A DNA stretch of 64,000 nt from Candidatus Micrarchaeia archaeon. Its GTDB lineage: Archaea > Micrarchaeota > Micrarchaeia > Anstonellales > Bilamarchaeaceae. Location of the stretch: contig JBNLBN010000001.1 of NCBI GenBank assembly GCA_050303335.1, positions 42,239 to 106,238 on the forward strand. Direction: 5' to 3'. This document shows positions 5,192 to 47,374 of this stretch, in pieces; position 1 is the first letter of the stretch; each line of letters starts with the position of its first letter. Made by a program: the position numbers and the translations under genes. The notes beneath the pieces are model-generated. The model was not told where the DNA came from. It was given only the letters and a program-made list of their open reading frames with translations, and ran no database searches.

Positions 5192-5893
5192 ATGAAAAAT
5201 ATAATGCTTGTTTTCTTGATTGGTTCCATCCTCTTGTTTGGATGCACCCAGTCAACAACGGACAAAACCGGAGATAACATGGATAACTCCATGGATACCG
5301 GGGACAATATGGAAGATACCGGAGATTCAATGAATGATACCACGCAAGATTCCGGGGACAATATGGAAGATACCGGAGATTCAATGAATGGTACTGTAGA
5401 CAGTAATGGTGGAACCGGGGGCTCAAATGACCTTCTTGGAAAATCCTTTGCTGAACTATCTGTGCTTGGAATTCCCTTACAATGTGATATCACAGCGTCA
5501 ATCGAAGGACAGACAACCAACACAAAGGTCTATATGAAAGGTGATGATGAGGTAAGGTCTGAAGTCGATATTACAGTATCAAGCGGCTGCGATCAGTTCG
5601 TCTACATCATGAAAAACGGTAAGGTCTACATGGGTTGCGAAGAAGGCGAAGTCTTCGGAGACATCGCGATGTTTGAAGGATGCAACTGGATAGAGTTCGA
5701 GAAACAGGAAGGCACTGTAGAAGGCTCAGAATCCTCATACAGCTATTCGGCCTCGACTCCTGACTTCGGATCCGTTCCGGATTCTGATATCAGCTGCGTT
5801 CCATGGCTATACGATGCATCCAAATTCGATACACCCGGGAAGATCTGCAACATTGAGGAGATAATGTCCCAGCAGGGAACGACCTTCCCCTAG
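5192..5893 (+). CDS. Putative lipoprotein with acidic Met/Asp/Asn-rich tandem repeats
   Basis: ORF 5111..5893. The start is placed at MKNIMLVFLIGSILLFGCTQ, a lipobox-like LFGC. It contains a repeated DNMEDTGDSMN(D/G)T unit. Confidence 0.5.
   Translation: MKNIMLVFLIGSILLFGCTQSTTDKTGDNMDNSMDTGDNMEDTGDSMNDTTQDSGDNMEDTGDSMNGTVDSNGGTGGSNDLLGKSFAELSVLGIPLQCDITASIEGQTTNTKVYMKGDDEVRSEVDITVSSGCDQFVYIMKNGKVYMGCEEGEVFGDIAMFEGCNWIEFEKQEGTVEGSESSYSYSASTPDFGSVPDSDISCVPWLYDASKFDTPGKICNIEEIMSQQGTTFP
5298..5390 (+). repeat. Two tandem copies of a 54-nt period repeat (39-nt identical core) inside the lipoprotein gene
   Basis: ccggggacaatatggaagataccggagattcaatgaatg occurs at 5298-5336 and again at 5352-5390. 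Confidence 0.8.
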
Positions 5894-13145: not shown

Positions 13146-13640
13146 ATGGTCAACCCGTGCGCACTCTGCAAAGCAAACTGCTGCAAGACCTATATCATTA
13201 CCGTTACATCGTTCGATGTAAAAAGGATAATTGAGAAGGGACACAAACCGGATTTCGTCAAGTTCCACCCACCAAATCTCCTTGCTTATGATCCTGATTC
13301 TGTTCTTGATTTTACCGATGATTATCGAGGGGGATTGCTCGGATTCAAGTCACACCCATGCAATTTTATCAAGAACAACAGGTGCACGATATATGAATAT
13401 TCTCCCCTTTCCTGCAAGAGGTATCCATTCGATCTTTCGGGTAAAATCAACACCCGCCTCTGCCCGGTCGTCCCGTCGCTGGCATTCCGCCTGACCGGAG
13501 TCAGCATTACCCACGAAGAAGTGCTCTCAGAATATAATGAATATCGGAGGATAGTCCAGGAATGGAACAAGTCTCCTGGCAAAAAGAGTGAGTGCCTGGA
13601 ATTCCTTCTTGAGTCTACTTCTTTAGCAGAAAAGAAATAA
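13146..13640 (+). CDS. YkgJ-family putative zinc/iron-chelating protein (CxxCxxxCC)
   Basis: CALCKANCC motif at the N-terminus. 164 aa. Confidence 0.5.
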   Translation: MVNPCALCKANCCKTYIITVTSFDVKRIIEKGHKPDFVKFHPPNLLAYDPDSVLDFTDDYRGGLLGFKSHPCNFIKNNRCTIYEYSPLSCKRYPFDLSGKINTRLCPVVPSLAFRLTGVSITHEEVLSEYNEYRRIVQEWNKSPGKKSECLEFLLESTSLAEKK

Positions 13641-14412
13641 CAAACAGGATTATAGACACCATAACAATGGCGCCTCCTGATGCCAGGTCAAACCAGAATG
13701 AAAGGAACAATCCGAGGACAACAGATGTCAGGCCGAATATGGCAGAAAGTACGAGCGTTCCGCCAAAAGACCGTGAAACCTGAAGAGCAGCTGCAGGAGG
13801 TATGATCAGAAAAGATGAGATAAGTATTATCCCTACTATCCTTATTGATATGACTACGACGACAGCGGTTAGCACTATCAGTAATGTGTTCAGCCTTTTT
13901 ACAGGAACCCCAGATACCCTTGCACTCGTCTCGTCAAAGCACATGTACATGAGGTCCTTGCTGTAAACCAGGAGCAGGATTGCTACAATCGATCCGAGTC
14001 CGAGTGCCATTATCACGTCCTCTTCACTTATGGAAATGATGTTTCCGAAAAGGAAATAGTGCAGGTCCACGGAAAACCCGTGCGCAAGACTTATCAGTAT
14101 CACACCAAGTGCCAGGGCGAATGAAAACACGATTCCTATCGAAACATCCCCGTAAATCTTTGCATAGTCCCTTAGCTTTTCAATAGCAAGAGCAGAAAGG
14201 ACAGAAAAGACAAGTGCCACTCCGAAGGGAAGATAATTAAGGAACAATCCGAGTGCCACACCGCCGAATGCTATATGGCTGAGACCGTCTCCTATCAGGG
14301 CCATCCTTCGCAGTATCAGGAATACTCCTACGAGTGCTGTTGTGATTGCAATGACCGACCCTGCAATCAGGGCCTTTTGCATGAATCCATATCCAAGTAT
14401 TTCAAACATCAT
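13615..14412 (-). CDS. Metal (Zn/Mn-type) ABC transporter permease
   Basis: 265 aa polytopic membrane protein. It is the last gene of the SBP-ATPase-permease operon on this strand. ZnuB/MntB-like. Confidence 0.7.
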   Translation of the reverse strand: MMFEILGYGFMQKALIAGSVIAITTALVGVFLILRRMALIGDGLSHIAFGGVALGLFLNYLPFGVALVFSVLSALAIEKLRDYAKIYGDVSIGIVFSFALALGVILISLAHGFSVDLHYFLFGNIISISEEDVIMALGLGSIVAILLLVYSKDLMYMCFDETSARVSGVPVKRLNTLLIVLTAVVVVISIRIVGIILISSFLIIPPAAALQVSRSFGGTLVLSAIFGLTSVVLGLFLSFWFDLASGGAIVMVSIILFVISFLLKK

Positions 14413-15131
14413 ATCCTCTCTGTAAGTTCCCAGATCTTCTCCTTGTTGAACTTTTGCGGATCTCCGTCAAAGACCACTTTCCTGTTAAGTACTATGACCC
14501 TGTTCACATGCTGGAGCACCTGCCCGATGTCATGCGTTATCAGGATTATTGTTATCTCCATTTCCTTGTTCAGCTTCTGCAGGAGGTCATAGAAGCTGTG
14601 CTGGCTGTTGTAATCCATAGCAGCAGTAGGTTCATCGAGGAACAGTATCTCCGCGTTTCCTGCAAGAGTTTTTGCAATGAACACCCTTTGTCTCTGTCCT
14701 CCTGAAAGAGATCCGATCCTCCTGTCTTTCAGGTCGTAGATTCCTACGATTTTCATGGCCTCAATTGCCGCCTTCCTGTCCTCATTATCGAAGCTGCGAA
14801 GTATCCCCTTCTTTCTGGACAGCCTGCCCATCAGGACCACTTCCATTACAGTTGCAGGAAATTTGAAATCAAAGTCCTCGACCGTCTGCTGGACATACCC
14901 AATCTTCTGCCAGTCATTGAAAGTTCCAATGTCATTTCCGAGGATACGTATTGATCCTGTATTTGGTTCCAGCAGGCCGAGCGAAAGTTTCATGAGGGTG
15001 GATTTTCCAGTACCGTTGTGCCCAAGAAGGGCGACGAATGCACCTTTCTTGATTTTCAGTTCAATCTTGTCAAGCACCTTGTGCTCGCCATATGAAAAAT
15101 CAACATCAGAAAATACCAGGGAATCACTCAC
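14409..15131 (-). CDS. Metal ABC transporter ATP-binding protein
   Basis: Walker A GHNGTGKST, ABC signature LSGGQRQR, Walker B ILFLDEP. Confidence 0.8.
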   Translation of the reverse strand: MSDSLVFSDVDFSYGEHKVLDKIELKIKKGAFVALLGHNGTGKSTLMKLSLGLLEPNTGSIRILGNDIGTFNDWQKIGYVQQTVEDFDFKFPATVMEVVLMGRLSRKKGILRSFDNEDRKAAIEAMKIVGIYDLKDRRIGSLSGGQRQRVFIAKTLAGNAEILFLDEPTAAMDYNSQHSFYDLLQKLNKEMEITIILITHDIGQVLQHVNRVIVLNRKVVFDGDPQKFNKEKIWELTERI

Positions 15132-15975
15132 AGTCCAGCGCCTCCTTCATTGTGACAAGATTCTGATCCATTACTTCTATATAACTCTTCTGATCTTGTG
15201 GCGAATATGCCTCAATGGGGCTGAAAACCGCAGTTTTTCCGTCTATCTCGTTTGCAATCGCCTCGGACAGCTTCGGTGATATGTATTCCTCGAAAAATAT
15301 GTGAGTTGCCCCCTTCTCCTTTGCTTCCTTTATAAGTTCGTCCAGGTCAGCAAGAGACACTTCTCCCTCGGGCTCGAAGTTGTCAATAATTGCAACCTGT
15401 TCAAGCCCGTAGTCTGCTGCAAGGTATCCGAATGCAGCATGCGATACAAACATTTCCCTGTGCCTGCAGTTTTTTGTCCCTTCCGTATAACGGGAATCAA
15501 GTTCTTCCAGTTTAGCAAGGTACTCTTCCTTGTTCCTTTTGAACACTTCCCTCTTTTCCGGATATTTCCTGATCAGTTCATCTGCAATATGTTCGGCCAT
15601 TACCCTTGCCTTCCTCGGGCTCAGCCAGGTATGCGGGTCCTTTACGCCTTTGGTATCAATCAGCGGAATCTTTTCGCTTGCAGATATCACGTAAATATCA
15701 TTGCTCACAACGCCTACTGTTTTATGGATCCACAGTTCAAAATAGTCATTCGTGTATATTATTGCATCGGCATTCTCCAGCTTTACGATATCCTGCGGGG
15801 TGGGTTCGTATGAATGTGCATTGAGTCCCGGAGGAAGCATCAGCCACACTTCGATCTCCTCACCTACAATGCTCCTTGTCATATCGTAGACTGGATAGCT
15901 TGTCGTTGCAATGAACCCCGAACCTATCTCGCTTGTACAGCCGAAAACCAGGAATAAAAGAATGAGCCATCTCAT
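15124..15975 (-). CDS. Metal-binding periplasmic/surface substrate-binding protein (TroA/ZnuA cluster 9 family)
   Basis: 283 aa with a lipobox-like LVFGCTS and conserved His-containing segments (DPHTW, HAAFGY). Confidence 0.7.
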   Translation of the reverse strand: MRWLILLFLVFGCTSEIGSGFIATTSYPVYDMTRSIVGEEIEVWLMLPPGLNAHSYEPTPQDIVKLENADAIIYTNDYFELWIHKTVGVVSNDIYVISASEKIPLIDTKGVKDPHTWLSPRKARVMAEHIADELIRKYPEKREVFKRNKEEYLAKLEELDSRYTEGTKNCRHREMFVSHAAFGYLAADYGLEQVAIIDNFEPEGEVSLADLDELIKEAKEKGATHIFFEEYISPKLSEAIANEIDGKTAVFSPIEAYSPQDQKSYIEVMDQNLVTMKEALDCE

Positions 15976-16361
15976 CAGATCTTCCTCCCATGGGGGTCAA
16001 GCTTCGGCTCACCAAGGAATCTATAGAGCTTCCTTACCATCTCATCGCTTACTGCATGTTCCATTCTGCAAGCTTCTTCATGTATCTTTCCTTTTTTCAT
16101 CCCGAGTTTTTCAAATAGGAATGTTTCAAGCACCCTGTGCCTGAAGTTCATCTTCTTTGCGACCATTTTCCCTTTTGGGGTAAGATATATCCTGCCGTAC
16201 CTTTCCTTTTCAACATATCCTTTATCAGACAATTTGGAAAGCGTTATTGCTACGGTGTTTTTGGAAAGCCCAAGCTCCTTTGCGATGTCGATGGACCTGG
16301 CACCGTTATCGCTTATCTTGTCAATAAGACGGCAGTACTCCTCGATGGTTTGTTTCTCCAT
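15975..16361 (-). CDS. DtxR/MntR-family metal-dependent transcriptional repressor
   Basis: 128 aa with an N-terminal HTH. It resembles iron- or manganese-dependent repressors and is the first gene of the metal-transport operon. Confidence 0.7.
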   Translation of the reverse strand: MEKQTIEEYCRLIDKISDNGARSIDIAKELGLSKNTVAITLSKLSDKGYVEKERYGRIYLTPKGKMVAKKMNFRHRVLETFLFEKLGMKKGKIHEEACRMEHAVSDEMVRKLYRFLGEPKLDPHGRKI

Positions 16362-16419: not shown

Positions 16420-18843
16420 TTACTCCTCAGGAGGCGTCTCCACTTGAGATCCTGCGCCCTTGGGGACGACGGCGAAGGTCGCAACCTTCTCGCCATCTTT
16501 CAGCCGGAATATCCTCACTCCCTGCGTGTTCCTGCCAATAACCGAAATGTCCTTCACGTATGTTCTTATCGCCTGGCCGTTCGAACTCATCAGGATGATC
16601 TCATCGTCATCGTCGACTGCGCGAATTCCTACGACATTGCCGTTCCTTCCCTCGGTCTTGATGTTGATGACACCTGATCCTCCTCTTGCCTGTAGCCTGT
16701 ATTCATCGATAGGAGTCCTTTTTCCGAATCCGTTTTCAGTAATGGTAAGGAGGGTGGGCTTCTTGCACACGGCTATGCCGACTACATTGTCGTCACCCTT
16801 CATCCTGATTCCTATTACTCCCTGGCCGGTTCTTCCGATCTCCCTCGCGTCCTCTTCCTTGAACCTGATCGCCTGGCCTTTCCTGGTTGCAATTATAAGC
16901 TCCTTAGATCCATCTGTCTTGCGGACTTCGTCAAGCCTGTCTCCGTCCTTCAGGGTGATGGCAATGATTCCCCCGCGCCTCACGTTCTTGAAATTCTCGA
17001 GCGCGGTCCTCTTGATTATGCCCTTCCTGGTGCTCATTACGAGGTATTCGCTGCTGTCGAATCTGTCTACAGAAATCCACGAAGTCACCTTCTCGTCCTT
17101 CAGTTCAAGCAGACTGACCAGCGTCTTTCCTGTCGCATACCTGCCGGTTTCCGGAATCTTGTATGCCTTGAGCCAGAACACCCTTCCCTGGTCGGTAAAC
17201 AGCATGAGGTAGTTGTGGTTTTTCGTAACGATAACATCCTGGACGAAATCCTCCTCCTTGGTTTCAGTTCCGATTATTCCCTTTCCGCCCCTGTGCTGTG
17301 CGCGGTACTCGTCAAGCCCGACCCTCTTCACATAGCCCCTGCTGGTTATCGCGATGACCACATCATCATTCGGTATGAGGTCCTCTATGTCAGTGTCCTC
17401 TTCGGAATCGCTGATCTCGGTCCGCCTCTCGTCATTGTATCTCTCCCTTATCTCGTTCAGTTCGTTCTTGATGATCTCAAGCACCTTGTTGATGTCTGAA
17501 AGCACGCTCTGGAGCCATTCGATCTTCTTCATGAGTTCTCCATATTCGTTCTCTATCTTCTCCCGTTCAAGTGCAATCAGTTTCGAGAGCTTCATATCAA
17601 GTATGGCATTTGCCTGGATTTCGCTCAGGCTGTAATTTTCCATCAACCCTGCTCTTGCCTCTGCAATGTCCTTGGATTTGCGCAGGAATTCCACTATCGG
17701 ATCTATGTTCTCAAGCGCTATCCTCAGTCCTTCGAGCACGTGTGCACGCGCCTCGGCTTCCTTCAATTCGTACTGGCATCTTTTTGTTACGATCTCCTTC
17801 CTGAATTCTATGAACTCATTTATCATGTCATACAATCCAAGTATCTTGGGTTCTTTGCCTACGATCGACAGATTGATGATGCCGAATGTCGTCTGGAGCG
17901 ATGTGTGAGCGTATAGCTGGTTTATCAGGACATCGTAATCATGGCCCTTCTTTACATCCAGTATTATCTCCATTCCCTGCTTGTCCGACCTGTCGTGGAT
18001 TCCTGAGATTCCCTCGATTTTCTTGTTCTTGACTGCGGCAACGATGGAATCAATGACGCTCGTTTTGGTTACCTGGTATGGGATCTCAGTGATTATGATC
18101 GCTTTCTTTCCTTCGTCCTTGCCTACTTTTCCCCTGAGCCTGATGGTTCCCCTTCCGCTCTTGTAAGCCTTGTAGATTCCTGATCTTCCGCAGATTATGC
18201 CTCCTGTCGGAAAGTCCGGCCCTTTAACGATGTTCAGCAGCTCGTCTTCGTCCTTGCCGTCAATGAGCGCTATCGTTCCGTCGATTATCTCTCCGATGTT
18301 ATGTGGTGGGATGTTAGTAGCCATTCCGACCGCGATTCCTGATGATCCGTTGATAAGAAGATTCGGTATCTTCGATGGAAGATATAGCGGCTCCTTCAAT
18401 GTGCCATCGAAATTCTCTCCCCATTCCACTGTCTCCTTGTCAAGGTCGGACATGATCTCTGCTGCAAGCTTTGCCATCCTGACCTCCGTGTACCTCATGG
18501 CTGCCGGGCTGTCTCCGTCGACCGATCCCATGTTTCCCTGACCGTCAACAAGCGTGTACCTGAGCGAGAATGTCTGCGCCATCCTGACAAGCGCATCATA
18601 AATGGCACTGTCGCCATGTGGATGGTACTTACCGAGCGTTTCACCGACAACCCTCGCACTTTTCTTATGGGGCTTCCCGTAAACATTCCCCAGTTCATGC
18701 ATTGAGTAAAGGATTCTCCTGTGAACCGGCTTGAGGCCGTCCCTCACGTCCGGAATGGCGCGGCCGATGATTACCGACATCGCGTAGTCAAGGTAGCTAT
18801 CCCTCATATCCTTTTCAATTGGTATATTGACGATCTTTTCCAT
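16420..18843 (-). CDS. gyrA: DNA gyrase subunit A
   Basis: 807 aa. It has an AAMRYTE active-site Tyr motif and the C-terminal GyrA beta-pinwheel repeats. Confidence 0.85.
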
Positions 18844-18845
18844 TT

Positions 18846-20726
18846 TTACACATCCAGGTTCTTGACATAAACTGCGTTCTTTTCTATGAATTCGCGCCTC
18901 GGTTCAACCGCGTCCCCCATGAGGATCGAGAACAGTTCGTCTGCAACCATCGCATCCTCTATGGTCACTCTCTTCAATGTCCTTGTTTCCGGATCCATGG
19001 TGGTCTCCCACAGCTGCCCGGCGTTCATCTCTCCGAGACCCTTGTATCTCTGTATTCCGGCATTCCCTCCGATTTCTGTAAGGACTTCCTGGAGCTGAGC
19101 GTCGGTGTATGCATAGTTTATCTGCTTTCCCTTCTGGATCTTGTAGAGCGGAGGCTGTGCAATGTATAGGTAGCCCCTTTCTATTACATCCTTGAAATAC
19201 CTGTAGAACAGGGTGAGGATAAGTGTCCTGATATGCGAACCGTCCACATCCGCATCGGTCATGATTACAATCTTATGGTACCTGATCTTTGAAATGTCGA
19301 ACTCGTCCTTGAAACCTCCTCCTAGGGCCAGCACCATATTCTTGATCTCCTCGCTTGCAAGCACCCTGTGCATGGGCGCCTTCTCGACATTCAGGATTTT
19401 CCCCCGAAGCGGGAGTATTGCCTGGTAGCTCCTGTCCCTTGCCTGCTTGGATGTTCCGCCTGCCGAATCCCCCTCAACAATGTAGAGCTCTGCCTTTGAC
19501 GGATCCTGCTCGCTGCAGTCTGCAAGCTTTCCTGGAAGAAGGCTGCTTTCAAATACGTTCTTCCTCCTGATAAGGTCCTTCGCTTTTTGCGCAGCTTCCC
19601 TTGCTTCCATCGAGTTAACGATCTTTGCGCAGATGTTCTTCGCGTCGTCGGGGTGCTCTTCAAGGTATGTCTTGAACGTTTCGTATACCATGCTGTCGAC
19701 AGCCCCCCTAACCTCGCTGTTTCCAAGTTTCGTCTTGGTCTGTCCTTCGAACTGGGGCTCCTGGACCCTTGCGCTGATTACAGCCGTAAGGCCCTCCATT
19801 ATGTCGTCCCCAGTGATCTTCTTGTCCTCCTTCACAACCCTGTTCTGCTTGACATAGTCGTTGATGACCCTTGTCAGTGCGGTCCGGAATCCTGTCAGGT
19901 GCGTTCCGCCTTCGATAGTCTTGATGTTGTTTACGAAACTGTAGATCATGGGACTGAAGCTGTCCGTGAACTGCATCGCAACCTCTATTTCGACGTCATT
20001 CGAGATCTTCTCAAAATAGTATGCCTCATGCAGCTTGTTCCTTGCCTTGTTGAGATGTGATACGAACTCCTTGATTCCCCCCTCAAAGAAGAATTCCTCC
20101 CTTCTGTCATTCCTCTCGTCACTTATCACTATCCTTAGGCCCTTGTTCAGGAAGGCGAGTTCCATCAGCCTTTCCTTCAAATAATCATATTCAAATTCCG
20201 TCTTCTCGAAAATCTGCGCGTCCGGCTTGAACCTGACGTAAGTGCCATGCGAATCACTATCCTGCTTCACCTGCATGGGCTCGGTCATCTTTCCCCTGCT
20301 GTAACCGATTGTATGTACCTTCCCGTCCCTGTGTACCTCGATCGTCATCCATTCCGAAAGCGCGTTGACGACGCTCATCCCAACCCCGTGGAGTCCTCCG
20401 GATACCTTATATGCCTTTTTTCCGAATTTCCCGCCTGCGTGGAGGGAACTTGAAACCAGCTCCAGAGCCGATTTTCCGCTTGCGTGCTTGTCGACAGGGA
20501 TTCCCCTTCCGTTGTCCCTGACCTCCGCCCAGCCGTCCTTTCCGAGGGTAAGTTCTATCCTGTCACAGTAGTTTGCAAGGGCTTCGTCGATACTGTTGTC
20601 GATTATTTCGTAAATAAGATGGTGCAGTCCCCTTTTGCTGGTATCACCAATGTACATACCCGGCCTTCTTCTAACACCTTCAAGACCCTCTAAAACTTGT
20701 ATTTCCTTTGCTGTGTATTCATCCAT
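18846..20726 (-). CDS. gyrB: DNA gyrase subunit B
   Basis: 626 aa with GHKL ATPase motifs ([16 protein letters not shown]), a toprim EGDSAGG and a [12 protein letters not shown] motif. Confidence 0.85.
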
Positions 20727-20809: not shown

Positions 20810-23038
20810 TCATTGGTCGATTATTTTCATCTTCGCCTTCCACTTCTCAATGGCCTCGTTGAACCTCTCCTTCCTGACAAAAAGGACCGATTCGCTTGCC
20901 TTCCCCTTCATGTACACTATGACCTTTGAGTTGCCCTGGCAAACAAAACTCTGCGGGTCGTGCTGCCCCAGTTTCTTTGCAAGGCTCTTGATGTAATTCC
21001 TCAGTTTCAGCGCAAGCGCCTTCTTAACCGTTCCGCTTCCCTCGCTGAATTCCGACATCTCAATCTTGTCATGCCTGATTACCAGTATTCCTTCGACAAG
21101 GTCCTTGACAATCAGGCCGTGGATGATATTGTCTACCGAGACCGTCTTTCTCTTCAACCCGTCATGGTCGAGCGAGACATCTTCGTGTTCTGTCGCGTAT
21201 TTGTTCAGTGCCCAGATGCGAAGTGATGCCGGTATCGTCATGAGGGATGCTGAGTAGACCTCATTCTGTTCGTCCAGAATCTTGGTGATGCTGTCCGACC
21301 ATGCCGGCCAGTTGGTATCTGCTGATGCCTTCTTTTCATTCAGGCTCTTGATCGCGCCTTCAACCGATGCAAGGTTGTCATCGATTACTGATTTGGTCTG
21401 TGCAGTGATCTTGGAGGAGAGCTTCTTCACGTCAAGCCCCTTTGCAGATGTGAGGATATCGTATTCCCTGCTGAATTCGAAATTTTCCTTTGTGTACTGG
21501 TTGATAAGATCAGCCAGTTCCTGAATCTTCTCCTCGAGCTTTGCAGCCTTTGCCATGTACATATCCTTCTCATGCCTGATGACCATACCGTATGCGCGCT
21601 CGAGTATGGTGATCTTCGTCAGGTTCTCGAATGCAAGGTAAAGCATGAGTATTCCGATCGCGCTGAGCCCGAATCCGAGTATTCCCAGTTCGCTCTTTAT
21701 AAGTGTTTCAAACGTTTCCGTGATCGGAGGAATCGTGGTGGGCTGGTCGCTCAGGAATTCGCTTACATAGAATCCGATTGCAAGGAAGACGATCGCGATC
21801 ACTATGTCGCTCTTCCATGTGACTGCCGTTCTTCCGAATGCCCTCCTGAATCCTGCAGTAAATGTAGCCCCTGCCGCCCTCTCGCTGACCAGTACGAATG
21901 CAAGGATTATGATGTTGTAGATCAGGAGCAGTATCGCGATTGTGATTCCGATTGCGAATCCAAGTGAGAGGAAATAGTTGCCCAAAATTGACTGTACGAT
22001 GTCGAAAATAGCTGAAGTGAGGAAGAATCCCCCGAGGCCTATATTCGAGGTCCTGATTTCAGGCCTTTCAATGGCGTTCAGCAGTTCCTCAGGAGGCTTG
22101 TTTGAGCTGAATTCATAGCCCACCATATATCCGTTCTTGTTAGGCATCCTGGAATTCCAGACTATTACCGTATCGGCATTCTTTGTTACGTCTATCTTCT
22201 GTATGGAGAATACGTCATCCGGCTCAATGAATCGCACATGGTCCGTGATTCCGGCGGATATCAGTTCTGTTCCCTCTTCGGACTGCGGACTCATGAGGAT
22301 CACTACTGTGTACTCATAGCCTTCAACCGAAGTACTGTATTCCCCGAGTTTCTTGGCAGCACTTATTGCGTATTGCGTTCCGAAATCGCTGTATGAACAA
22401 AGGTTGAGGTTGTTATAGAGGGGGTTGGAATTGATGCTCGAGACCCTCGAAACCATGTCCCTCGTTATCTGGAGGAACTCATTCTTCTCTTCGATGCTCT
22501 GGTTCCTTAGCCCAAGGACCATCCTCCTTGAATCAAGAATCAATGACCTCAATTCGGTGTTATCCTGGACGTATGTGATCATCGAGTCTGTCAGCACTTC
22601 GTCAAAGTCCTCTGCTATCGACCTGCATCTTGTTGTGGAAGAGCAAAGCCTGCTGCATGTTGTGATGTCCGAGCAGACGACGTTCAATATACCTATGTTC
22701 TTGCTGCATGCCGCATCTGCCTGGATCCTGGACTGGGAGAACTCGTCAAGGTCTGAATCCGCAAAAAGCAGGTCCACGTCAGTAAGATTACTGTCCAGCG
22801 CAGTATACTCTGCCCTGGTTTTTGTCGAGACGGTGACAAACCTCTGGACCTTCATGTTCCCCGCTTCGAAGGGGGAATATGTTATTGCCACATAATCGCT
22901 GATCCCGTCCCCATCAATATCCTCTGATACTGTATTCATGACATTCTCGTTTCCAAGCCCGGAATAATTAGAGTCTTCTATGCATCCGAACGCGACAAGG
23001 AATATTAATAACAGATATATTGCACGCATGTGAAACAT
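20810..23038 (-). CDS. Large hypothetical membrane protein with an N-terminal signal/lipobox, an ~370-aa extracellular domain, 3-4 TM helices and an ~300-aa cytoplasmic coiled-coil tail
   Basis: 742 aa. AFGCIEDS lipobox-like N-terminus, hydrophobic segments around residues 380-470, and a heptad-rich C-terminal region. I recognise no family. Confidence 0.45.
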   Translation of the reverse strand: MFHMRAIYLLLIFLVAFGCIEDSNYSGLGNENVMNTVSEDIDGDGISDYVAITYSPFEAGNMKVQRFVTVSTKTRAEYTALDSNLTDVDLLFADSDLDEFSQSRIQADAACSKNIGILNVVCSDITTCSRLCSSTTRCRSIAEDFDEVLTDSMITYVQDNTELRSLILDSRRMVLGLRNQSIEEKNEFLQITRDMVSRVSSINSNPLYNNLNLCSYSDFGTQYAISAAKKLGEYSTSVEGYEYTVVILMSPQSEEGTELISAGITDHVRFIEPDDVFSIQKIDVTKNADTVIVWNSRMPNKNGYMVGYEFSSNKPPEELLNAIERPEIRTSNIGLGGFFLTSAIFDIVQSILGNYFLSLGFAIGITIAILLLIYNIIILAFVLVSERAAGATFTAGFRRAFGRTAVTWKSDIVIAIVFLAIGFYVSEFLSDQPTTIPPITETFETLIKSELGILGFGLSAIGILMLYLAFENLTKITILERAYGMVIRHEKDMYMAKAAKLEEKIQELADLINQYTKENFEFSREYDILTSAKGLDVKKLSSKITAQTKSVIDDNLASVEGAIKSLNEKKASADTNWPAWSDSITKILDEQNEVYSASLMTIPASLRIWALNKYATEHEDVSLDHDGLKRKTVSVDNIIHGLIVKDLVEGILVIRHDKIEMSEFSEGSGTVKKALALKLRNYIKSLAKKLGQHDPQSFVCQGNSKVIVYMKGKASESVLFVRKERFNEAIEKWKAKMKIIDQ

Positions 23039-25961: not shown

Positions 25962-26599
25962 AATTCGACAGGAATCCATTCAGCAGGATACACCAGTCCC
26001 TGATAAGGGATACCCCCATCGCCCTCGTCGGACTAGGGGGGATCGGCGGCTTCGCATTCGAGAACCTCCTCCGCCTCGGAGCCGAAAATCTCATCGTTTT
26101 CGACAATGACCGGTTCGAACTCACTAACTTCAACCGGCAGGTGCTTTCAACAGATTCGACTCTGGACCGCACCAAGACGTCCGCTGCAAGGGCCCGCGCA
26201 AGGAAAATCAACGGGAACGCAAAAGTCCGGGCCTACAGGAGTTTCCGGTCGCTGGATGAAAAAATCATCATCGACGCCACCGACAATCTTGAAACAAGGA
26301 TTGCCCTCTCCAGGATTGCAAGAAATGAAAGGATTCCCTATGTCTTTGCATCGGCAAACGATTCCAGGGGGATCGTCTCGCTTTTTACTGATTACGAATT
26401 TGAAAAGGCTTTCCAGGTCGCTGGCAAGCAGACTGGAAAATGCTCCACAATCACATGCCCTGCGGCCGCGGTTTCCGGATCCATTGCAGCATCCCAGGCT
26501 GTAAACCATATTATCGGAAAGCCGGTGATAAAGGCGCCAAAGGCCCTCTTTTTCGACCTTGAGAGGCCGGATCCGTTTTGGATGGTGGATCTGGAATGA
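25958..26599 (+). CDS. Compact E1-like ThiF/MoeB/HesA-family adenylyltransferase
   Basis: GLGGIGG nucleotide-binding loop, NFNRQ motif, DATDN, and a CSTITCP cysteine pair. Only 213 aa. ATGA overlaps at both ends. Confidence 0.7.
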   Translation: MKFDRNPFSRIHQSLIRDTPIALVGLGGIGGFAFENLLRLGAENLIVFDNDRFELTNFNRQVLSTDSTLDRTKTSAARARARKINGNAKVRAYRSFRSLDEKIIIDATDNLETRIALSRIARNERIPYVFASANDSRGIVSLFTDYEFEKAFQVAGKQTGKCSTITCPAAAVSGSIAASQAVNHIIGKPVIKAPKALFFDLERPDPFWMVDLE

Positions 26600-26865
26600 A
26601 ATACTATGTGCTCGAGCCGTGCAAGAGCTCGAACGGATTCGAGATCAAGTTCCAGGCAAAGATTGACCTTGATAGGTCGGCAGAAGTATTCGAGCCTGTT
26701 TCAAGGTCACTCGTGGTGCTCCTTGCAAAGTTCGGGGATTACACTCTGAGCATATATTCAAGCGGCAGAATTATGATAAAATCGGACAAGCGCATGGACC
26801 GGAAAGATGTAGAACATGCGGCAGAAGAAATTACTGCGAAACTGGAGGAGGGAAATGCAATATGA
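26596..26865 (+). CDS. Single-repeat TBP-fold protein (half-TBP-like)
   Basis: My alignment to the TBP repeat consensus: FEIKFQAKIDLDR...TLSIYSSGRIMIKSDKRMDRKDVEHAAEEITAKL against (I)VASVDLxxxLDL...ALLIFSSGKxVxTGAKSxxDxxxAxxKxxxxL. This is recalled similarity, not a search result. Confidence 0.5.
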   Translation: MKYYVLEPCKSSNGFEIKFQAKIDLDRSAEVFEPVSRSLVVLLAKFGDYTLSIYSSGRIMIKSDKRMDRKDVEHAAEEITAKLEEGNAI

Positions 26866-27796: not shown

Positions 27797-28081
27797 ATGG
27801 AAGTAATCGATATCGCGGTCATAATAAACGTGCTCAACGTCCTGCTGCTCTCAGCCCTGCTTTACACCTATGGAAAGAATTATTTCTCGGTCAAGGCGAA
27901 ATTCTGCCTCGGGCTGATATTGTTTGCGGGCCTTTTTATGATTCAGAACCTTATCGCGATCTACTTTGAGCTCTTCCAGTCCCACTGCTATTCGCAAGAC
28001 ACTGCGCAGTTCTCGCTGATACTAAACATCATCCAGACATTCGGCTTCACGTCCCTGCTGTATATAACCTGGAATCCCTAG
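27797..28081 (+). CDS. Small hydrophobic protein with 3 predicted helices (pilin/VirB2-like candidate)
   Basis: 94 aa, almost entirely hydrophobic. It sits immediately upstream of the membrane/ATPase module. Confidence 0.4.
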   Translation: MEVIDIAVIINVLNVLLLSALLYTYGKNYFSVKAKFCLGLILFAGLFMIQNLIAIYFELFQSHCYSQDTAQFSLILNIIQTFGFTSLLYITWNP

Positions 28082-28109
28082 CGAAAGCTATTTAATAGAT
28101 GGATAAGAT

Positions 28110-29165
28110 TTGGCTCCTATGGCAGATTTTCCTGGTGTAGAGATCGCAGTCACTGTTGTTTTCGCCTCGATCCTGCTCGCCGCCATCATGATAGGTCTTG
28201 GCAGGGCACTGCAATACAAGCGGATCGAATCCTTCGGAATCGAGGAACTCATACAGTCAATCATTAACGCAGCGATAATCGGAGCCTTCGCAGCAGTTAC
28301 GGAACTGGTCGCATCGATAAGCTCCACCATCGTCACTCCGATATGCCAGGAAGGGAACGTTATAGAGCAGCTGATCTGCGTGCTTTCCTCTGTAAACGAT
28401 ATGCTCTTCTCGATGTTCAAAGAGCTTGTGCAGATCATGAACCTGGTGGGATACTACCAGTCGATCTCGCTTGATTTCGGCGCCTTCATGATCACGCCGT
28501 TCGAGAATCTTGCCACCCTCTCAGGGGTGCTCTCCACCCAGCTGTTCACGCTCAATGCGCTGATAATTCTTGTTTCCCTCAATATCCAGGTTGGAAGCTT
28601 CATAGGAGAAAACGCCATGGGCCTCCTGTTTCCGGTGGGCCTTGTCCTGAGAACGTTTTTCGCAACAAGGAAGGTCGGCGGATTCCTCATTGCGCTTTCC
28701 CTGGGGCTATTCATCTTCTTCCCGACATTCATCATGATATTCCCGGATCCGCAGCCGAATGCGAACGAGTCTGCACTGCTGATGCAGAATTTCACGAACA
28801 ACAGCTTCTATGCGACCCCGCCAATCATCGACCTGAACGACAACTATGCCATTGCAGGAAAATTCGACATCCTTTCAGGAAGGTGCAAACAGCAGAACAC
28901 AACCAACATAACGAACGTCACATCGAACTGCAATGAGACGCTGGTACTCTACAACATATCCAACCTCTCGGCCAACAACACCTCGGTTGATTTCACGTCC
29001 GACATAACTGAAATAGTGCAGTCAAACAACAACGTGCTTGCGAAAGTCCTCCTTTATTCAGTTCTAGCGCCCGTCTTCTCGCTGCTTATCACAGTTGTTT
29101 TCGTCAAGGAACTCGCGACGATTCTCGGCAGTGAAGTAGGGATAAAAACCATAGCTTCAATTTAA
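28110..29165 (+). CDS. Polytopic membrane protein (VirB6/CedA-like candidate) with an N-glycosylation-rich extracellular segment
   Basis: 351 aa with 5-6 TM helices. NTTNITNVTSNCNETLVLYNISNLSANNTS is a sequon cluster before a final TM. Confidence 0.45.
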   Translation: MAPMADFPGVEIAVTVVFASILLAAIMIGLGRALQYKRIESFGIEELIQSIINAAIIGAFAAVTELVASISSTIVTPICQEGNVIEQLICVLSSVNDMLFSMFKELVQIMNLVGYYQSISLDFGAFMITPFENLATLSGVLSTQLFTLNALIILVSLNIQVGSFIGENAMGLLFPVGLVLRTFFATRKVGGFLIALSLGLFIFFPTFIMIFPDPQPNANESALLMQNFTNNSFYATPPIIDLNDNYAIAGKFDILSGRCKQQNTTNITNVTSNCNETLVLYNISNLSANNTSVDFTSDITEIVQSNNNVLAKVLLYSVLAPVFSLLITVVFVKELATILGSEVGIKTIASI

Positions 29166-29189
29166 AAATTTGGCAGGTGAGAAATTAAC

Positions 29190-29972
29190 ATGATTATAAA
29201 CCGCGCTATAACCATAATTGCTCTTGTAGGCGGAATTCTTGCTATAATCCTGTCTATCCTTTCCGGAAATTTCCTCTTTCCGATACTCGCATCATTGCTT
29301 TTCAGTTTCAGCCTGCTCATATGGAAATACGGCTATCTTTTCATTCCGGTCATCACCAAGGCGACGAACATAGTCGAGGTGCGCGGTTCATATCAGGTGC
29401 CATCTTCCAGGGATCACATACTGATGAAGACTGACAACGGCTATTACGCGTCAAAATTCCTTGAGGTTAAATTCTATGAAAGCTCGATGGAAAAGGACAC
29501 CACGGAAAAAAAGAACATGTTCGAATCCTTCGAGAAGGCAATAAGTTCGCTAAAATACGTTGTAAAAGTAAGCCTGATGATCACGACGCTTGACCTTTCT
29601 CGCCATATTGACGAGATAAAGACAAGGCGGGCAACTGTTGAAGCGAAAAAGTCAAAGGAAGCGAAACTGGCGCAGAACGAGGCACTCAGGATGGACCGTG
29701 AACTTGCGTACCTGAACAGGCTCCTTGACAGGATCACGCAGGGAGAACGGCCTGTCGAAGTAGTCGCATTCGCATCCACTACGGCCTTCGGCCTGACAAG
29801 GGACGAGGCGACCAGCAGGGTGAACCGGCAGGCAAAGGAAATACGGACAATACTTTCCAGTTCGCTCGGATGCGAGGTCCGCGACCTGAAGGACACAGAC
29901 ATGCTCAAATGCTTTGAATGGGACTATTTCTTCCCGACAACAAGAGAAGAAATCAAGGATTCCCTCTTTTAG
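29190..29972 (+). CDS. Membrane protein with an N-terminal 2-TM hairpin plus a cytoplasmic coiled-coil domain (VirB3-like candidate)
   Basis: 260 aa. Two hydrophobic helices in the first 60 aa, then a charged helical domain. Confidence 0.4.
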   Translation: MIINRAITIIALVGGILAIILSILSGNFLFPILASLLFSFSLLIWKYGYLFIPVITKATNIVEVRGSYQVPSSRDHILMKTDNGYYASKFLEVKFYESSMEKDTTEKKNMFESFEKAISSLKYVVKVSLMITTLDLSRHIDEIKTRRATVEAKKSKEAKLAQNEALRMDRELAYLNRLLDRITQGERPVEVVAFASTTAFGLTRDEATSRVNRQAKEIRTILSSSLGCEVRDLKDTDMLKCFEWDYFFPTTREEIKDSLF

Positions 29973-30019
29973 AAAACTTTATATATCCCACTGTTGAGTA
30001 CTTGTTGGGTTGAGGTGGA

Positions 30020-31573
30020 ATGAAGTCTTCATATATGCTCTCTAAGGAGCTTGCGCGCAATATGATTTTTGTGCATCCTCCGGAGCCGAGAAAAGATCTA
30101 TTGCTTTCAGATCCGATGCAGGGAGTCTATATCGGGAAAACAAGGTTTCTCGGCACTCCCGTATTCTGGGATCCGAAGAAGCTCATTAATCCGCACATTG
30201 CGATACTCGGAATTACCGGTTCCGGTAAAAGTTATACTGTAAAGACTTTTCTCACAAGGGCATCTTTAATCTGGAACACCAATGCAGTGATACTTGACTG
30301 GGTCGGAGAATACAGGGAATGGGTAAGGCAGGCAGGGGGGAGGATCATAGATCTTTCTGAAGAAAGGCTTAATATCCTCGACCTGGTCGGACTTCCGAAA
30401 AGGAGCCGGATCAGGCACATAATTTCAGCACTGGACATACTTGTGGACCTGAAGGCATATCCCAACGAGCGTGACGAGATCGAGCAGTCGCTTGAGGAGA
30501 TATATTTCAACCATTCTAGCAAGATGCCTGCAATGGCCGAGATAAACCGGAAGCTCTCGAAGAAGAACATAACCAAGAAAGAGAAACAGGAACTGCTCTC
30601 AAAGCTAAGCAAGCTGGAGAGCTGCAAGCCCACGCTTATCGATGTCGTCAACCTCCTTGAGAAGAAGGGGAAGAGGAAGGCTGCCAGGCTACTGAAGCGA
30701 TTCACCGTGGAAGGCACTGATTTCTTTGCAGGAAATTCTACAATGGACGTCAAGGCGCTTACAAACAGCGGACTTGTCTGCGTTGATCTCCACAATCTCC
30801 CGACAGAGGAGATGAGGAGTCTTGCCGGGCTCACGATCCTCCAGTACATAAAGGAGATAATGCGCCAGGAAAAAATGGAGGAGGACCATAAGAAGGTGAA
30901 GCTCTTCGTCGTCCTAGATGAGGCATGGAAGATCGCGCAGGACGAGAGGTCCGACGTGATCACCATAGTCCGTGAAGGTCGGAAGTACAACTTCTCGCTC
31001 GTGATCGCTACCCAGAACCCGACAGATATGCACAAGACGATCTTCAGCAACATCGGCTCGATCTTCGTGCTGCGCCTTGTTCTTAAGGAATACAGGGATT
31101 ACGTAAAGAATTCCATAGGATATTCCGAATTCATTGACAACGAGATATCCAAGTTCGGTGTGGGGGATGCCGCGGTCAACATGATATTTTCTGAGAGGCA
31201 GTCAAAGGTCATGACATTCCTGATGAATAAGATTGATGGAGAAGAGCCTCTTTTCCTCTACAAGATAAAGGGTGGAGAGATGAATATTGAAATCGAACGT
31301 GAACAGTTTGTTCAGATGCTTTATGAATTGGGACTTAACGAGGGCCAGCTGGGAATGATAAAAGCCCAGTTCGAGAAGGGAGACGGTCTGCTTGAAGGCG
31401 AGGAGCTTGTTGCAATACTGGAAAAGTTCGGATATTCCAGGCCATCGATCATATCATTCCTGCGGCAGCTTGGGATAGACGAGAAGAACCTTATAAAGGT
31501 GTTTTCCCTGGTCAGGATGCGGAAAGCGACCAAGGGGGTCGTTCATCTCGTAATGGAGGATGGAAATGTCTGA
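30020..31573 (+). CDS. HerA/FtsK-superfamily (DUF87, VirB4/CedB-like) ATPase
   Basis: Walker A ILGITGSGKSYTVK about 60 aa from the N-terminus, so there is no HAS-barrel. Walker B VVLDEAWK. ATQNPTD motif. ~100-aa C-terminal helical extension. Confidence 0.65.
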   Translation: MKSSYMLSKELARNMIFVHPPEPRKDLLLSDPMQGVYIGKTRFLGTPVFWDPKKLINPHIAILGITGSGKSYTVKTFLTRASLIWNTNAVILDWVGEYREWVRQAGGRIIDLSEERLNILDLVGLPKRSRIRHIISALDILVDLKAYPNERDEIEQSLEEIYFNHSSKMPAMAEINRKLSKKNITKKEKQELLSKLSKLESCKPTLIDVVNLLEKKGKRKAARLLKRFTVEGTDFFAGNSTMDVKALTNSGLVCVDLHNLPTEEMRSLAGLTILQYIKEIMRQEKMEEDHKKVKLFVVLDEAWKIAQDERSDVITIVREGRKYNFSLVIATQNPTDMHKTIFSNIGSIFVLRLVLKEYRDYVKNSIGYSEFIDNEISKFGVGDAAVNMIFSERQSKVMTFLMNKIDGEEPLFLYKIKGGEMNIEIEREQFVQMLYELGLNEGQLGMIKAQFEKGDGLLEGEELVAILEKFGYSRPSIISFLRQLGIDEKNLIKVFSLVRMRKATKGVVHLVMEDGNV

Positions 31574-32267
31574 AGAAAAGATCGTAGTAAAATGCAAGCA
31601 GAAGAAAAACCTCAAGGCCCTTGCATCGCTTTTCGGGGGGCTGGGATTCACCAAAATCACATACTCAAAGGGAACGCTGGCAATAGAAAAGACGAGGGGC
31701 ACCGATCTTCGGGGGAATCCCTATCTTGAATACAGGGTTGAATTCATCGGCGACGAGATCATCTTCACATTCAGCCTCTCAGGAAAACGCAGCAAGAACG
31801 CGAGGCTTCTTGAACTGATGCCGACATTCCTGAACATCCTGCAGGTCGCGGAGGATTACTACGACATAAACCCAACTCAGATTTTTTCCAACATCAACAC
31901 TGTTCTTCAGGAACTTTCAAAGATCATAGACAAGGACGCGGTCGAGTTTTCCACGCAGCTAACAGACCTGCAGGCGAAATTCGACGATCTCAACAGGAAG
32001 TATTCGGACCTCGTCCGCTCAAGCGAGGCAAATACCAGGATACTGCTGGAGTGCGAAAGGAAGCGGGATGAGCAGCAGAAGAAACTTTCCCAGCTTACCG
32101 GCATGAGCGACGAACTCCTAAAGGAATCTCTGTTCACATGGATCAAGGTCCACAGCGGATCGATAGACATCCGGGAATTCTCCAAGGTCAATTCCATCTC
32201 AGTATCAAGGACGGAAGAGGGCCTGGACCAGCTGATCCGTGAAGGGTACATAAGGAGGAGGGTTTAA
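31560..32267 (+). CDS. Coiled-coil protein with a C-terminal winged-HTH domain, translationally coupled to the ATPase
   Basis: 235 aa. It overlaps the ATPase by 14 nt. The C-terminal ISVSRTEEGLDQLIREGYIRRR is wHTH-like. Confidence 0.4.
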   Translation: MEMSEEKIVVKCKQKKNLKALASLFGGLGFTKITYSKGTLAIEKTRGTDLRGNPYLEYRVEFIGDEIIFTFSLSGKRSKNARLLELMPTFLNILQVAEDYYDINPTQIFSNINTVLQELSKIIDKDAVEFSTQLTDLQAKFDDLNRKYSDLVRSSEANTRILLECERKRDEQQKKLSQLTGMSDELLKESLFTWIKVHSGSIDIREFSKVNSISVSRTEEGLDQLIREGYIRRRV

Positions 32268-47289: not shown

Positions 47290-47361
47290 ATGCGACCGTA
47301 GTCTACCGGTTATGATTCGAGATTGCCAATCTCGCGGACCGGGTTCGATTCCCGGCGGTCG
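47290..47361 (+). tRNA. tRNA-Gly (anticodon GCC)
   Basis: Hand-folded. Acceptor GCGACCG/CGGTCGC. Anticodon stem CGAGA/TCTCG with loop TTGCCAA, giving GCC at 47323-47325. T-arm CCGGG-TTCGATT-CCCGG. Discriminator A. No encoded CCA. Confidence 0.8.
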
Positions 47362-47374
47362 CATAGTTGGTTTT

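Follow-up and report, generated by a model that had tools for sequence, protein, structure and literature searches.

A free single-repeat TBP-fold protein with an invariant cysteine beside a short-form ThiF in a micrarchaeal genome: a candidate partner of adenylating sulfurtransferases

The TATA-box binding protein (TBP; PF00352) is a signature component of transcription in archaea and eukaryotes. The 64,000-nucleotide stretch of Candidatus Micrarchaeia archaeon DNA analysed here (assembly GCA_050303335.1, contig JBNLBN010000001.1, positions 42,239 to 106,238 of the forward strand; hereafter the window, whose own numbering is used) encodes a small single-repeat TBP-fold protein, named TBPd, between a ThiF/MoeB-type E1-like adenylyltransferase and a PHP-family phosphoesterase. 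Makarova and Koonin (2010; PMC2948915) described an architecture of 'E1 core + TBP-like C-terminal domain', noted E1-ThiI neighbourhoods, and proposed that TBP-like proteins of halobacteria which end in GG (arCOG06308) are analogues of ubiquitin-like (Ubl) proteins. Brindefalk et al. (2013; PMC3597702) reported monopartite TBP-domain proteins of Thermococcales (their Table 3; 82–136 amino acids, aa) and a small 'ThiF-MoeZ-MoeB group' of TBP domains, and stressed that these have no known function. No genomic link to sulfur enzymes is given there for the Thermococcales proteins; the existence of single-domain halobacterial TbpA proteins is documented in the same paper. Iyer et al. (2006) do not mention TBP. 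E1-TBP fusions and single TBP-domain proteins have thus already been published (2010, 2013), and TBPd is a split variant of a known uncharacterised architecture. As far as we know, the new elements are the cysteine that is invariant whether the domain is free or fused, the repeated pairing with a minimal ThiI, the spread to DPANN archaea, Thermoplasmata and Methanoperedens, and the split ThiF plus TBPd arrangement. By analogy with known sulfur carriers, we tentatively favour TBPd as a cysteine-based module that relays sulfur in trans for adenylating sulfurtransferases, not as a transcription factor, and give this reading slightly less than an even chance.

A sequence-only reading of the window had aligned the product of 26596–26865 to one TBP pseudo-repeat. 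Its coordinates were correct; its '90-aa product' is in fact 89 aa long, because the stop codon had been counted. The open reading frame (ORF) starts with ATG at 26596 and ends with TGA at 26863–26865, giving 89 codons plus the stop. An alternative upstream start, TTG at 26578, appears in the ORF list, and the N-termini of the homologues correspond to the ATG (MKYYV...). Taken alone, TBPd scores 15.3 bits against PF00352 (E 0.018) and does not reach the Pfam gathering cutoff of 22.9 bits; its match to the RNase HIII N-domain model PF11858 is also below cutoff (E 0.032), and a phmmer search of the PDB with the single sequence gave no match. The PF00352 search that had been proposed is thus negative for the single sequence and positive at family level, with 18 of 50 family members matching individually (best E 4.9e-6). 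A 50-member family profile run against solved structures matched 35 TBPs, all other matches staying at noise level; the TBPs of M. jannaschii (1.3e-7) and S. acidocaldarius (2.1e-7) scored best. These alignments cover the segment from IDL into the following helix, the SGR/SGK hairpin and the long H2 helix, and these are the motif segments picked out in the sequence-only reading.

Structure prediction gave a consistent picture. An AlphaFold2 model built with the family alignment (predicted local distance difference test, pLDDT, 92.5; predicted template modelling score, pTM, 0.83) shows the element order b0-S1-H1-S2-S3-S4-S5-H2, which is the topology of a TBP repeat with an extra N-terminal strand b0. 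The strands are placed at residues 3–6 (b0), 14–19 (S1) and 33–37, 41–46, 49–54 and 58–63 (S2–S5), and the helices at 25–31 (H1) and 69–85 (H2). In a Foldseek search of the PDB, ranks 1–20 are all TBPs (probability 1.00 for 18 and 0.99 for two), with query-normalised template modelling (TM) scores of 0.56–0.69, root-mean-square deviations of 2.2–4.4 Å and sequence identities of 11–26%, so that the alpha/beta half-saddle anticipated by the sequence-only reading is recovered in the predicted fold. The next ranks are taken by the N-domains of RNase H3 and OGG1, which are other known members of the TBP superfamily. Profile and model comparisons together confirm TBPd as a genuine TBP-superfamily homologue, detectable at the family level and not at the single-sequence level. 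A relationship to RiPP recognition elements or to THUMP/NFLD domains was considered and rejected, all significant structural and profile matches being to the TBP superfamily.

The same comparisons support a single TBP-fold domain that is not part of a two-repeat TBP. With one repeat in 89 aa, TBPd lacks the two tandem repeats of canonical TBP; no second repeat was found, both flanks being taken by the overlapping ThiF and PHP genes, and the family hidden Markov model (HMM) found no other TBP-like ORF or canonical TBP in the window. The sub-threshold Pfam score of the single sequence might be taken as a sign of a pseudogenised TBP fragment or of a chance ORF. About 180 homologous clusters with invariant residues and conserved length, overlap of both start and stop with the neighbouring genes, the lack of any second-repeat remnant and the confident structure prediction make this possibility practically negligible, and the exclusion of a decayed TBP, left as a check by the sequence-only reading, holds. 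True homology, the rank of TBPs as best structural matches and the existence of the halobacterial single-domain TbpA proteins (PMC3597702) would suit a transcription-related paralogue whose homodimer forms a TBP-like saddle on promoter DNA. We consider this very improbable: identity to TBPs is low, the N-terminal strand and Cys loop of the family are absent from TBP, the genomic contexts and fusions involve sulfur-transfer enzymes and never TFB or RNA polymerase genes, and the window protein is acidic.

Single-domain TBP-fold proteins had been described in the sequence-only reading as rare and functionally obscure. The obscurity stands, no experimental work having been found in the searchable literature; the family is not very rare. 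Searched exhaustively with a profile, 1.84 billion representatives yielded 51 small proteins, and a word-indexed profile search gave 144 further clusters; about 180 clusters were retrieved in all. A word-indexed search with the single protein retrieved three relatives only, so a profile search was needed; a single genome scan with one family alignment gave two loci. All retrieved members are stand-alone proteins of 54–147 aa, and by their source labels they come from Ca. Micrarchaeota, Micrarchaeia, Bilamarchaeum, unclassified DPANN-like archaea, Thermoplasmata and Ca. Methanoperedens. No Thermococcales names occur among the matches listed. Public labels of these proteins are inconsistent, ranging from hypothetical protein to 'ribonuclease HIII', 'TATA-box binding protein (component of TFIID and TFIIIB)' and 'ArsR family metal-binding transcriptional regulator' (members P0080, P0102, P0114, P0117, P0122, P0131, P0134, P0141 and P0142). 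The 'ribonuclease HIII', TBP and ArsR labels are probably wrong, and the JGI use of 'ribonuclease HIII' for relatives appears to be over-annotation.

The family is defined by one residue. Position 9 is Cys in 178 of 179 aligned sequences, the exception being an N-terminally truncated ORF, and this is the only side chain that is invariant throughout the family. Gly57 is conserved to the same extent (178/179), and E16, D24, S52, Y54, S56, R/K58 and K/R62 are strongly conserved in the same alignment. The context of the cysteine is EPC(K/T)S in the clade of the window protein and RLCSGR or KPCR in other clades. As judged from the alignments, the SGR hairpin is a TBP-superfamily inheritance and the Cys loop is specific to the family. 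A metal site made by TBPd alone is unlikely, because Cys9 is the sole cysteine in 112 of 171 members. No rhodanese match was found for TBPd in Pfam or NCBIfam; the fold is TBP-like and there is no CX5R loop. The median isoelectric point (pI) of the family is 9.2; the window protein, with a pI of 5.8 and a net charge of -1, is acidic.

Encoded beside an E1, a small protein of this kind could itself be a ubiquitin-like substrate, that is, a TBP-fold analogue of ThiS or MoaD with its own C-terminus adenylated, as has been hypothesised for halobacterial proteins (PMC2948915). Not one of 176 family members has a terminal GG (the window protein has ...EEGNAI there), the C-termini vary in length and sequence, the conserved feature is N-terminal, and the C-termini of the fused forms discussed below likewise lack GG. 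Identity with a beta-grasp Ubl substrate was rejected for want of the GG and for the wrong fold, and adenylation of TBPd itself seems to us hardly credible.

Homologues of TBPd outside the free family are found at the C-termini of long-form ThiF and MoeB enzymes. A 339-aa ThiF of Thermoplasmata matches the model NF009123 (338 positions, 'MoeB/ThiF family adenylyltransferase') end to end, and its last ~85 residues match the TBPd HMM. A word-indexed search with this fused C-terminal domain returned two fragments; fused examples were recovered by tblastn against PLSDB, in the form of Bacillales ThiF and MoeB proteins of 332–340 aa aligned over their full length. Four Bacillales records were examined, two of which lie in thiO-thiS-thiG-thiF operons and two in moa operons. 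In hmmsearch, the TBPd HMM matches five long-form ThiF/MoeB proteins with 15–25 bits, in all cases at residues ~255–338, and hhalign aligns the TBPd family with the fused domain at 96.8% probability (E 3.1e-10). All five fused domains carry a Cys directly before S1, in LCGR[DN] or QCGD, together with an F-x-DGR hairpin; the register of the pre-S1 Cys differs by one residue between free and fused forms in the hhalign alignment. None of the solved MoeB/ThiF structures covers this C-terminal ~85-residue domain.

Because of its homology to the C-terminal ~85 aa of these 332–340-aa enzymes, TBPd can be regarded as the free counterpart of the ThiF/MoeB-fused domain. In the window it is not covalently fused to the E1 core and is read as a separate ORF in a different frame. 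The window ThiF aligns with residues 25–216 of E. coli MoeB and 23–210 of E. coli ThiF, and retains GLGGIGG, NFNRQ, DATDN and a Cys aligned to Cys184 of E. coli ThiF. Both Zn-binding CxxC pairs are missing from it, and it has no additional domain at the C-terminus. An enzyme stripped to 213 aa in this way is consistent with TBPd as the split-off domain. The possibility that TBPd is a gene fragment of canonical MoeB was rejected, since the window ThiF already spans MoeB 25–216, and also because the extra domain lies past MoeB's own end. The substrates of the fused enzymes are proteins (ThiS and MoaD), so that the common theme appears to be sulfur transfer to an adenylate and not nucleic-acid binding.

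Gene context was compared in nine distinct Micrarchaeota-type contexts, namely the window and loci L001, L002–4, L005, L006, L007/8, L010/11, L012 and L016. The sequence-only reading had placed the gene between an E1-like enzyme and a PHP phosphoesterase, and Pfam matches bear out both neighbours (Table 1). ThiF lies directly upstream of TBPd in seven of the nine contexts, with an overlap of 4 nucleotides (nt) wherever gene calls exist. In L002–4 the ThiF-TBPd pair is kept though all other neighbours differ (a Na+/H+ exchanger upstream and a laminin-G protein downstream). In L006, from a Micrarchaeota MAG, a run of N at ~5628–5777 masks the 3' part of ThiF, so that ThiF and TBPd are read across it as one apparent 279-aa ORF. 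PHP is directly downstream of TBPd in eight of the nine contexts and absent from L002–L004. Neither neighbour is obligate, since L005 and L012 have no ThiF and L002–4 no PHP. The coupling to an E1 that had been suspected is therefore real, and is reinforced by the same domain and Cys being fused to long-form ThiF/MoeB. The link is not obligate, given the two relatives without ThiF, and a different partner, minimal ThiI, is the commonest across the family. The preference of the sequence-only reading for protein or nucleic-acid modification over transcription is likewise supported, in the specific form of adenylation-dependent sulfur transfer onto carrier proteins or tRNA.

The constancy of PHP suggests another possibility, in which PHP and TBPd would together form a two-protein nuclease or phosphatase, with TBPd binding the substrate or regulating the enzyme by analogy with the TBP-like N-domain plus catalytic domain of RNase HIII, and the ThiF linkage would be secondary. 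TBPd-PHP pairs with a 4-nt overlap include both contexts without ThiF, and a DPANN lineage has a different nucleotide hydrolase, of the HIT type, downstream of TBPd. However, PHP is absent from every non-Micrarchaeota context as well as from L002–L004, TBPd was never seen fused to PHP, in contrast to its widespread fusion to ThiF/MoeB, and the invariant Cys would be unexplained; we hold this partnership to be improbable.

Across the wider family the commonest partner is a minimal ThiI PP-loop ATPase (mini-ThiI). These partners match PF02568 only, and cover the C-terminal PP-loop part of TIGR00342 and NF006222 (a 198-position 'hypothetical' model). Matching only the PP-loop part of TIGR00342, they have no THUMP/NFLD and no rhodanese domains. 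In Thermoplasmata the order is ThiF (339 aa), mini-ThiI (189–207 aa) and TBPd, with a 4-nt overlap between the last two. The same locus (L014/L015, 3348–5276) holds two Cys-bearing TBP-fold modules, one fused to the 339-aa ThiF and one free and overlapping the mini-ThiI stop, which suggests one TBP-fold module per adenylating enzyme. In another archaeal lineage the order is MoeA-TBPd-miniThiI, again with 4-nt overlaps, and a ThiS-MoeA fusion lies opposite. A DPANN lineage was sampled by 48 metagenome loci (L021–L068), of which those with at least 500 nt upstream were taken as informative. A same-strand mini-ThiI lies upstream in 35 of 37 informative loci, directly adjacent in 23 and with one small gene between in 12, and the HIT hydrolase lies downstream in all 23 loci with enough sequence. 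The order in this cluster is mini-ThiI, sometimes an AAA_28 NTPase, TBPd, sometimes a small membrane protein, and HIT (for example L045, 3248–3979, 4001–4267 and 4342–4848). Linkage to ThiF or mini-ThiI thus recurs across independent lineages, in differing gene orders and nearly always with 4-nt overlaps.

The mini-ThiI partners are of two kinds. The Thermoplasmata type retains CxxC plus C, a three-Cys Fe-S motif that characterises a class of Fe-S-dependent U8 sulfurases (PMC9825150). The DPANN type has no CxxC and keeps the equivalent of Cys344; it also has a lineage-specific 'RC' Cys near the C-terminus. As the DPANN type is without CxxC, THUMP and rhodanese, it would need a second cysteine or sulfur donor in trans.

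The lack of NFLD/THUMP in these partners also suits a role of TBPd as an RNA (tRNA)-binding adaptor, in which the TBP fold would bind an A-form helix like the RNase HIII N-domain and recruit tRNA to mini-ThiI or to a TcdA-like ThiF. PF11858 is matched by 14 of the 50 family members (down to 4e-4), RNase H3 structures come next after TBPs in Foldseek, the family is basic on the median, genes of RNA processing are found in the vicinity (CCA-adding enzyme, beta-CASP RNase, LigT and PIN), and the window ThiF partially matches the tRNA ct6A synthase TcdA. On the other hand, the adaptor role does not explain the invariant Cys, the window TBPd is acidic, and the fused domain sits on ThiF/MoeB in thiamine and molybdenum cofactor operons, where the substrates are proteins. 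We regard RNA binding as unlikely to be the main function, though a serious candidate; it is compatible with a sulfur-relay role and the two are not mutually exclusive.

The favoured sulfur-relay role can be set out as follows. ThiF acts on ThiS, MoeB on MoaD and ThiI on tRNA U8; in all three cases the acceptor is adenylated and then attacked by a sulfur nucleophile. In MoeZ, Uba4/MOCS3 and E. coli ThiI this nucleophile is presented by a C-terminal rhodanese with one catalytic Cys. TBPd would be a free copy of the Cys-bearing TBP-fold accessory domain that long-form ThiF/MoeB carry C-terminally. Its synthesis would be translationally coupled to that of a short-form ThiF without such a domain, onto which it presumably docks. 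Cys9, in a predicted exposed loop just before S1, would then join the sulfur chemistry that follows adenylation, most likely by carrying a persulfide sulfur to the ThiF acyl-adenylate; thioester or disulfide chemistry may be used instead. In other lineages the Cys would deliver sulfur to the adenylated substrate of mini-ThiI. The co-operonic PHP might act on nucleotide by-products. The role would parallel that of the C-terminal rhodanese in MoeZ/Uba4 and E. coli ThiI, and rests on similar size, a fused or adjacent position, partners of the same classes and the single invariant Cys. When fused, the TBP-fold domain takes the C-terminal position that rhodanese holds in MoeZ-type E1s. The broader proposal, that free and fused TBP-fold modules together are an unrecognised non-rhodanese cysteine persulfide carrier for ThiF, MoeB and mini-ThiI adenylates, is rather doubtful and is put forward as a possibility.

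Several observations weigh against a sulfur relay. Within the window there is no small GG-ending ORF that could be a ubiquitin-like carrier, no cysteine desulfurase and no mini-ThiI. No experimental or biochemical work on the TBP-fold domain, free or fused, was found in the searchable literature. L005 and L012 keep TBPd-PHP without ThiF, the channel gene abutting TBPd-PHP there, and the tight linkage to PHP is left unexplained by sulfur transfer. In Ca. Methanoperedens (L019, 6001–7104) TBPd is followed by a 270-aa FKBP-type isomerase with no adjoining sulfur enzyme, and on the short contig L009 (28–886) it is divergent from a LigT 2'-5' RNA ligase/cyclic phosphodiesterase, again with no sulfur enzyme adjoining. 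The Thermoplasmata-type mini-ThiI with its three-Cys motif may not need a protein persulfide donor, the basic average of the family also suits RNA binding, and much of the synteny is drawn from related genomes, so that the loci are not fully independent. As a separate observation, FdhD lies ~5 kb from TBPd in the Ca. Methanoperedens locus.

The features of the locus are collected in Table 1. Five plus-strand genes, for the channel, ThiF, TBPd, PHP and ArsR, look like one translationally coupled unit. The channel gene is the first of the string and overlaps ThiF by 4 nt; it is syntenic in L001, L005, L007, L010, L012 and L016. The ThiF stop and the TBPd start share ATGA at 26596–26599 in different frames, and the TBPd stop and PHP start share ATGA at 26862–26865, each a 4-nt overlap. 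The GGTGGA upstream of the TBPd start is inferred to be its Shine-Dalgarno sequence. A PDB search for sequence relatives of the PHP phosphoesterase found none. The ArsR-type gene closes the string, overlaps PHP by 14 nt and is syntenic in L001 and L006.

Table 1. Positions of TBPd, its sequence features and the neighbouring genes in the window
Feature	Position	Strand	Evidence
Two-transmembrane K+ channel-like protein, 126 aa	25581–25961	+	PF07885, E 6.5e-19
Short-form ThiF/MoeB-type E1-like adenylyltransferase, 213 aa	25958–26599	+	PF00899, E 6.4e-33
Shine-Dalgarno-like GGTGGA	26584–26589	+	6 nt 5' of the TBPd ATG, within the end of the ThiF gene; read from sequence
Single TBP-fold protein TBPd, 89 aa	26596–26865	+	ORF, family profile, AlphaFold2 model, Foldseek
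Cys9 codon (TGC), EPCKSS loop between N-terminal strand b0 and S1	26620–26622	+	178/179 conservation
SIYSSGRIMIK, S4-turn-S5 hairpin	26749–26781	+	Aligns with the TBP SGK hairpin (LIFxSGKxV) in HMM alignments
PHP-family phosphoesterase, 214 aa	26862–27506	+	PF02811, 1.4e-7; PF13263 (PHP_C), 1.1e-7
ArsR-type winged helix-turn-helix regulator, 92 aa	27493–27771	+	PF01022, E 1.1e-11

Synteny and the nearest relatives of its proteins place the window in Micrarchaeota. The rest of it is an ordinary archaeal chromosome, with genes for GatD/GatE, FtsZ, AglB, gyrase, PolB, Pus10, GGGP synthase, Nre, NurA, SRP54, thermosome and DNA ligase. Downstream of ArsR, at 27797–32267, membrane and unknown proteins without Pfam matches (94, 351, 260 and 235 aa) surround a 517-aa ATPase, whose counterpart in L001 and L016 is labelled DUF87/AAA_10 (HerA/VirB4-like). 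Synteny of the block extends to both loci, and it could represent a secretion or pilus-like machinery conserved in Micrarchaeota. At 20810–23038 (minus strand) lies the gene for a 742-aa protein that has several hydrophobic stretches and is without a Pfam match, and a protein of similar size (734–760 aa) occupies the same place, upstream of the gene for the CCA-adding enzyme, in L007 and L016. Full-length DNA gyrase A and B genes are present at 16420–20726 (minus strand) on this apparent Micrarchaeota chromosome, and beside them, at 13615–16361, lie a ZnuABC-type metal ABC transporter and a DtxR-type repressor. The sole class-V aminotransferase in the window (48912–49976, plus strand) is AGXT/PhnW-like (TIGR03301, E 3e-46, sub-cutoff) and not IscS/SufS, and so offers no sulfur-mobilising enzyme as a partner to ThiF-TBPd. 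The sole RNA gene in the 64 kb is a tRNA-Gly(GCC) at 47291–47364 (plus strand), on which Rfam and ARAGORN agree.

The data point to one branch of the TBP superfamily that is tied to sulfur-transfer enzymes and not to transcription, and is defined by a single invariant Cys. Its free members are found in DPANN, Thermoplasmata and Methanoperedens, its fused ones in Bacillales ThiF/MoeB. How ThiS, MoaD or U8 receives sulfur where there is no rhodanese domain is a question to which no answer was found in the searchable literature. If the broader proposal of a persulfide carrier is correct, it would explain the sulfuration of ThiS, MoaD and tRNA in the many Firmicutes and archaea whose enzymes have no rhodanese domains, and the TBP fold would have an ancient enzymatic-accessory role unrelated to DNA binding. 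Single-domain TBP relatives also bear on how the TBP fold arose.

Compared with described systems, TBPd shares with TBP (PF00352) the fold, homology to each repeat, the xSGK/R hairpin and the long C-terminal helix, and differs in having one repeat, an extra N-terminal strand, a Cys loop, only 11–26% identity and no transcription-related context. The RNase HIII N-domain (PF11858/DUF3378) is similarly a single TBP-fold enzyme accessory with weak profile similarity; in contrast to it, TBPd has no fused RNase H and has the invariant Cys. The monopartite TBP proteins of Thermococcales are likewise small and archaeal, with one TBP domain strongly diverged from their own TBP and a predicted TBP-domain fold, and are likened to TBPd by published description and size (82–136 aa) only. 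Rhodanese domains of MoeZ, Uba4/MOCS3 and E. coli ThiI would be functional analogues, as accessories of ~90–100 aa with one essential Cys that serve the same enzyme classes and are fused C-terminally or adjacent, but their fold is unrelated and TBPd lacks the CX5R active-site loop. The C-terminal domain of long-form ThiF/MoeB (NF009123/PRK12475, ~338 aa) is homologous, of similar length, and has the DGR/SGR hairpin, the pre-S1 Cys and the association with a ThiF-type E1; in the window, unlike in these enzymes, the domain forms a polypeptide of its own, encoded by a gene that overlaps that of a 213-aa E1 by 4 nt.

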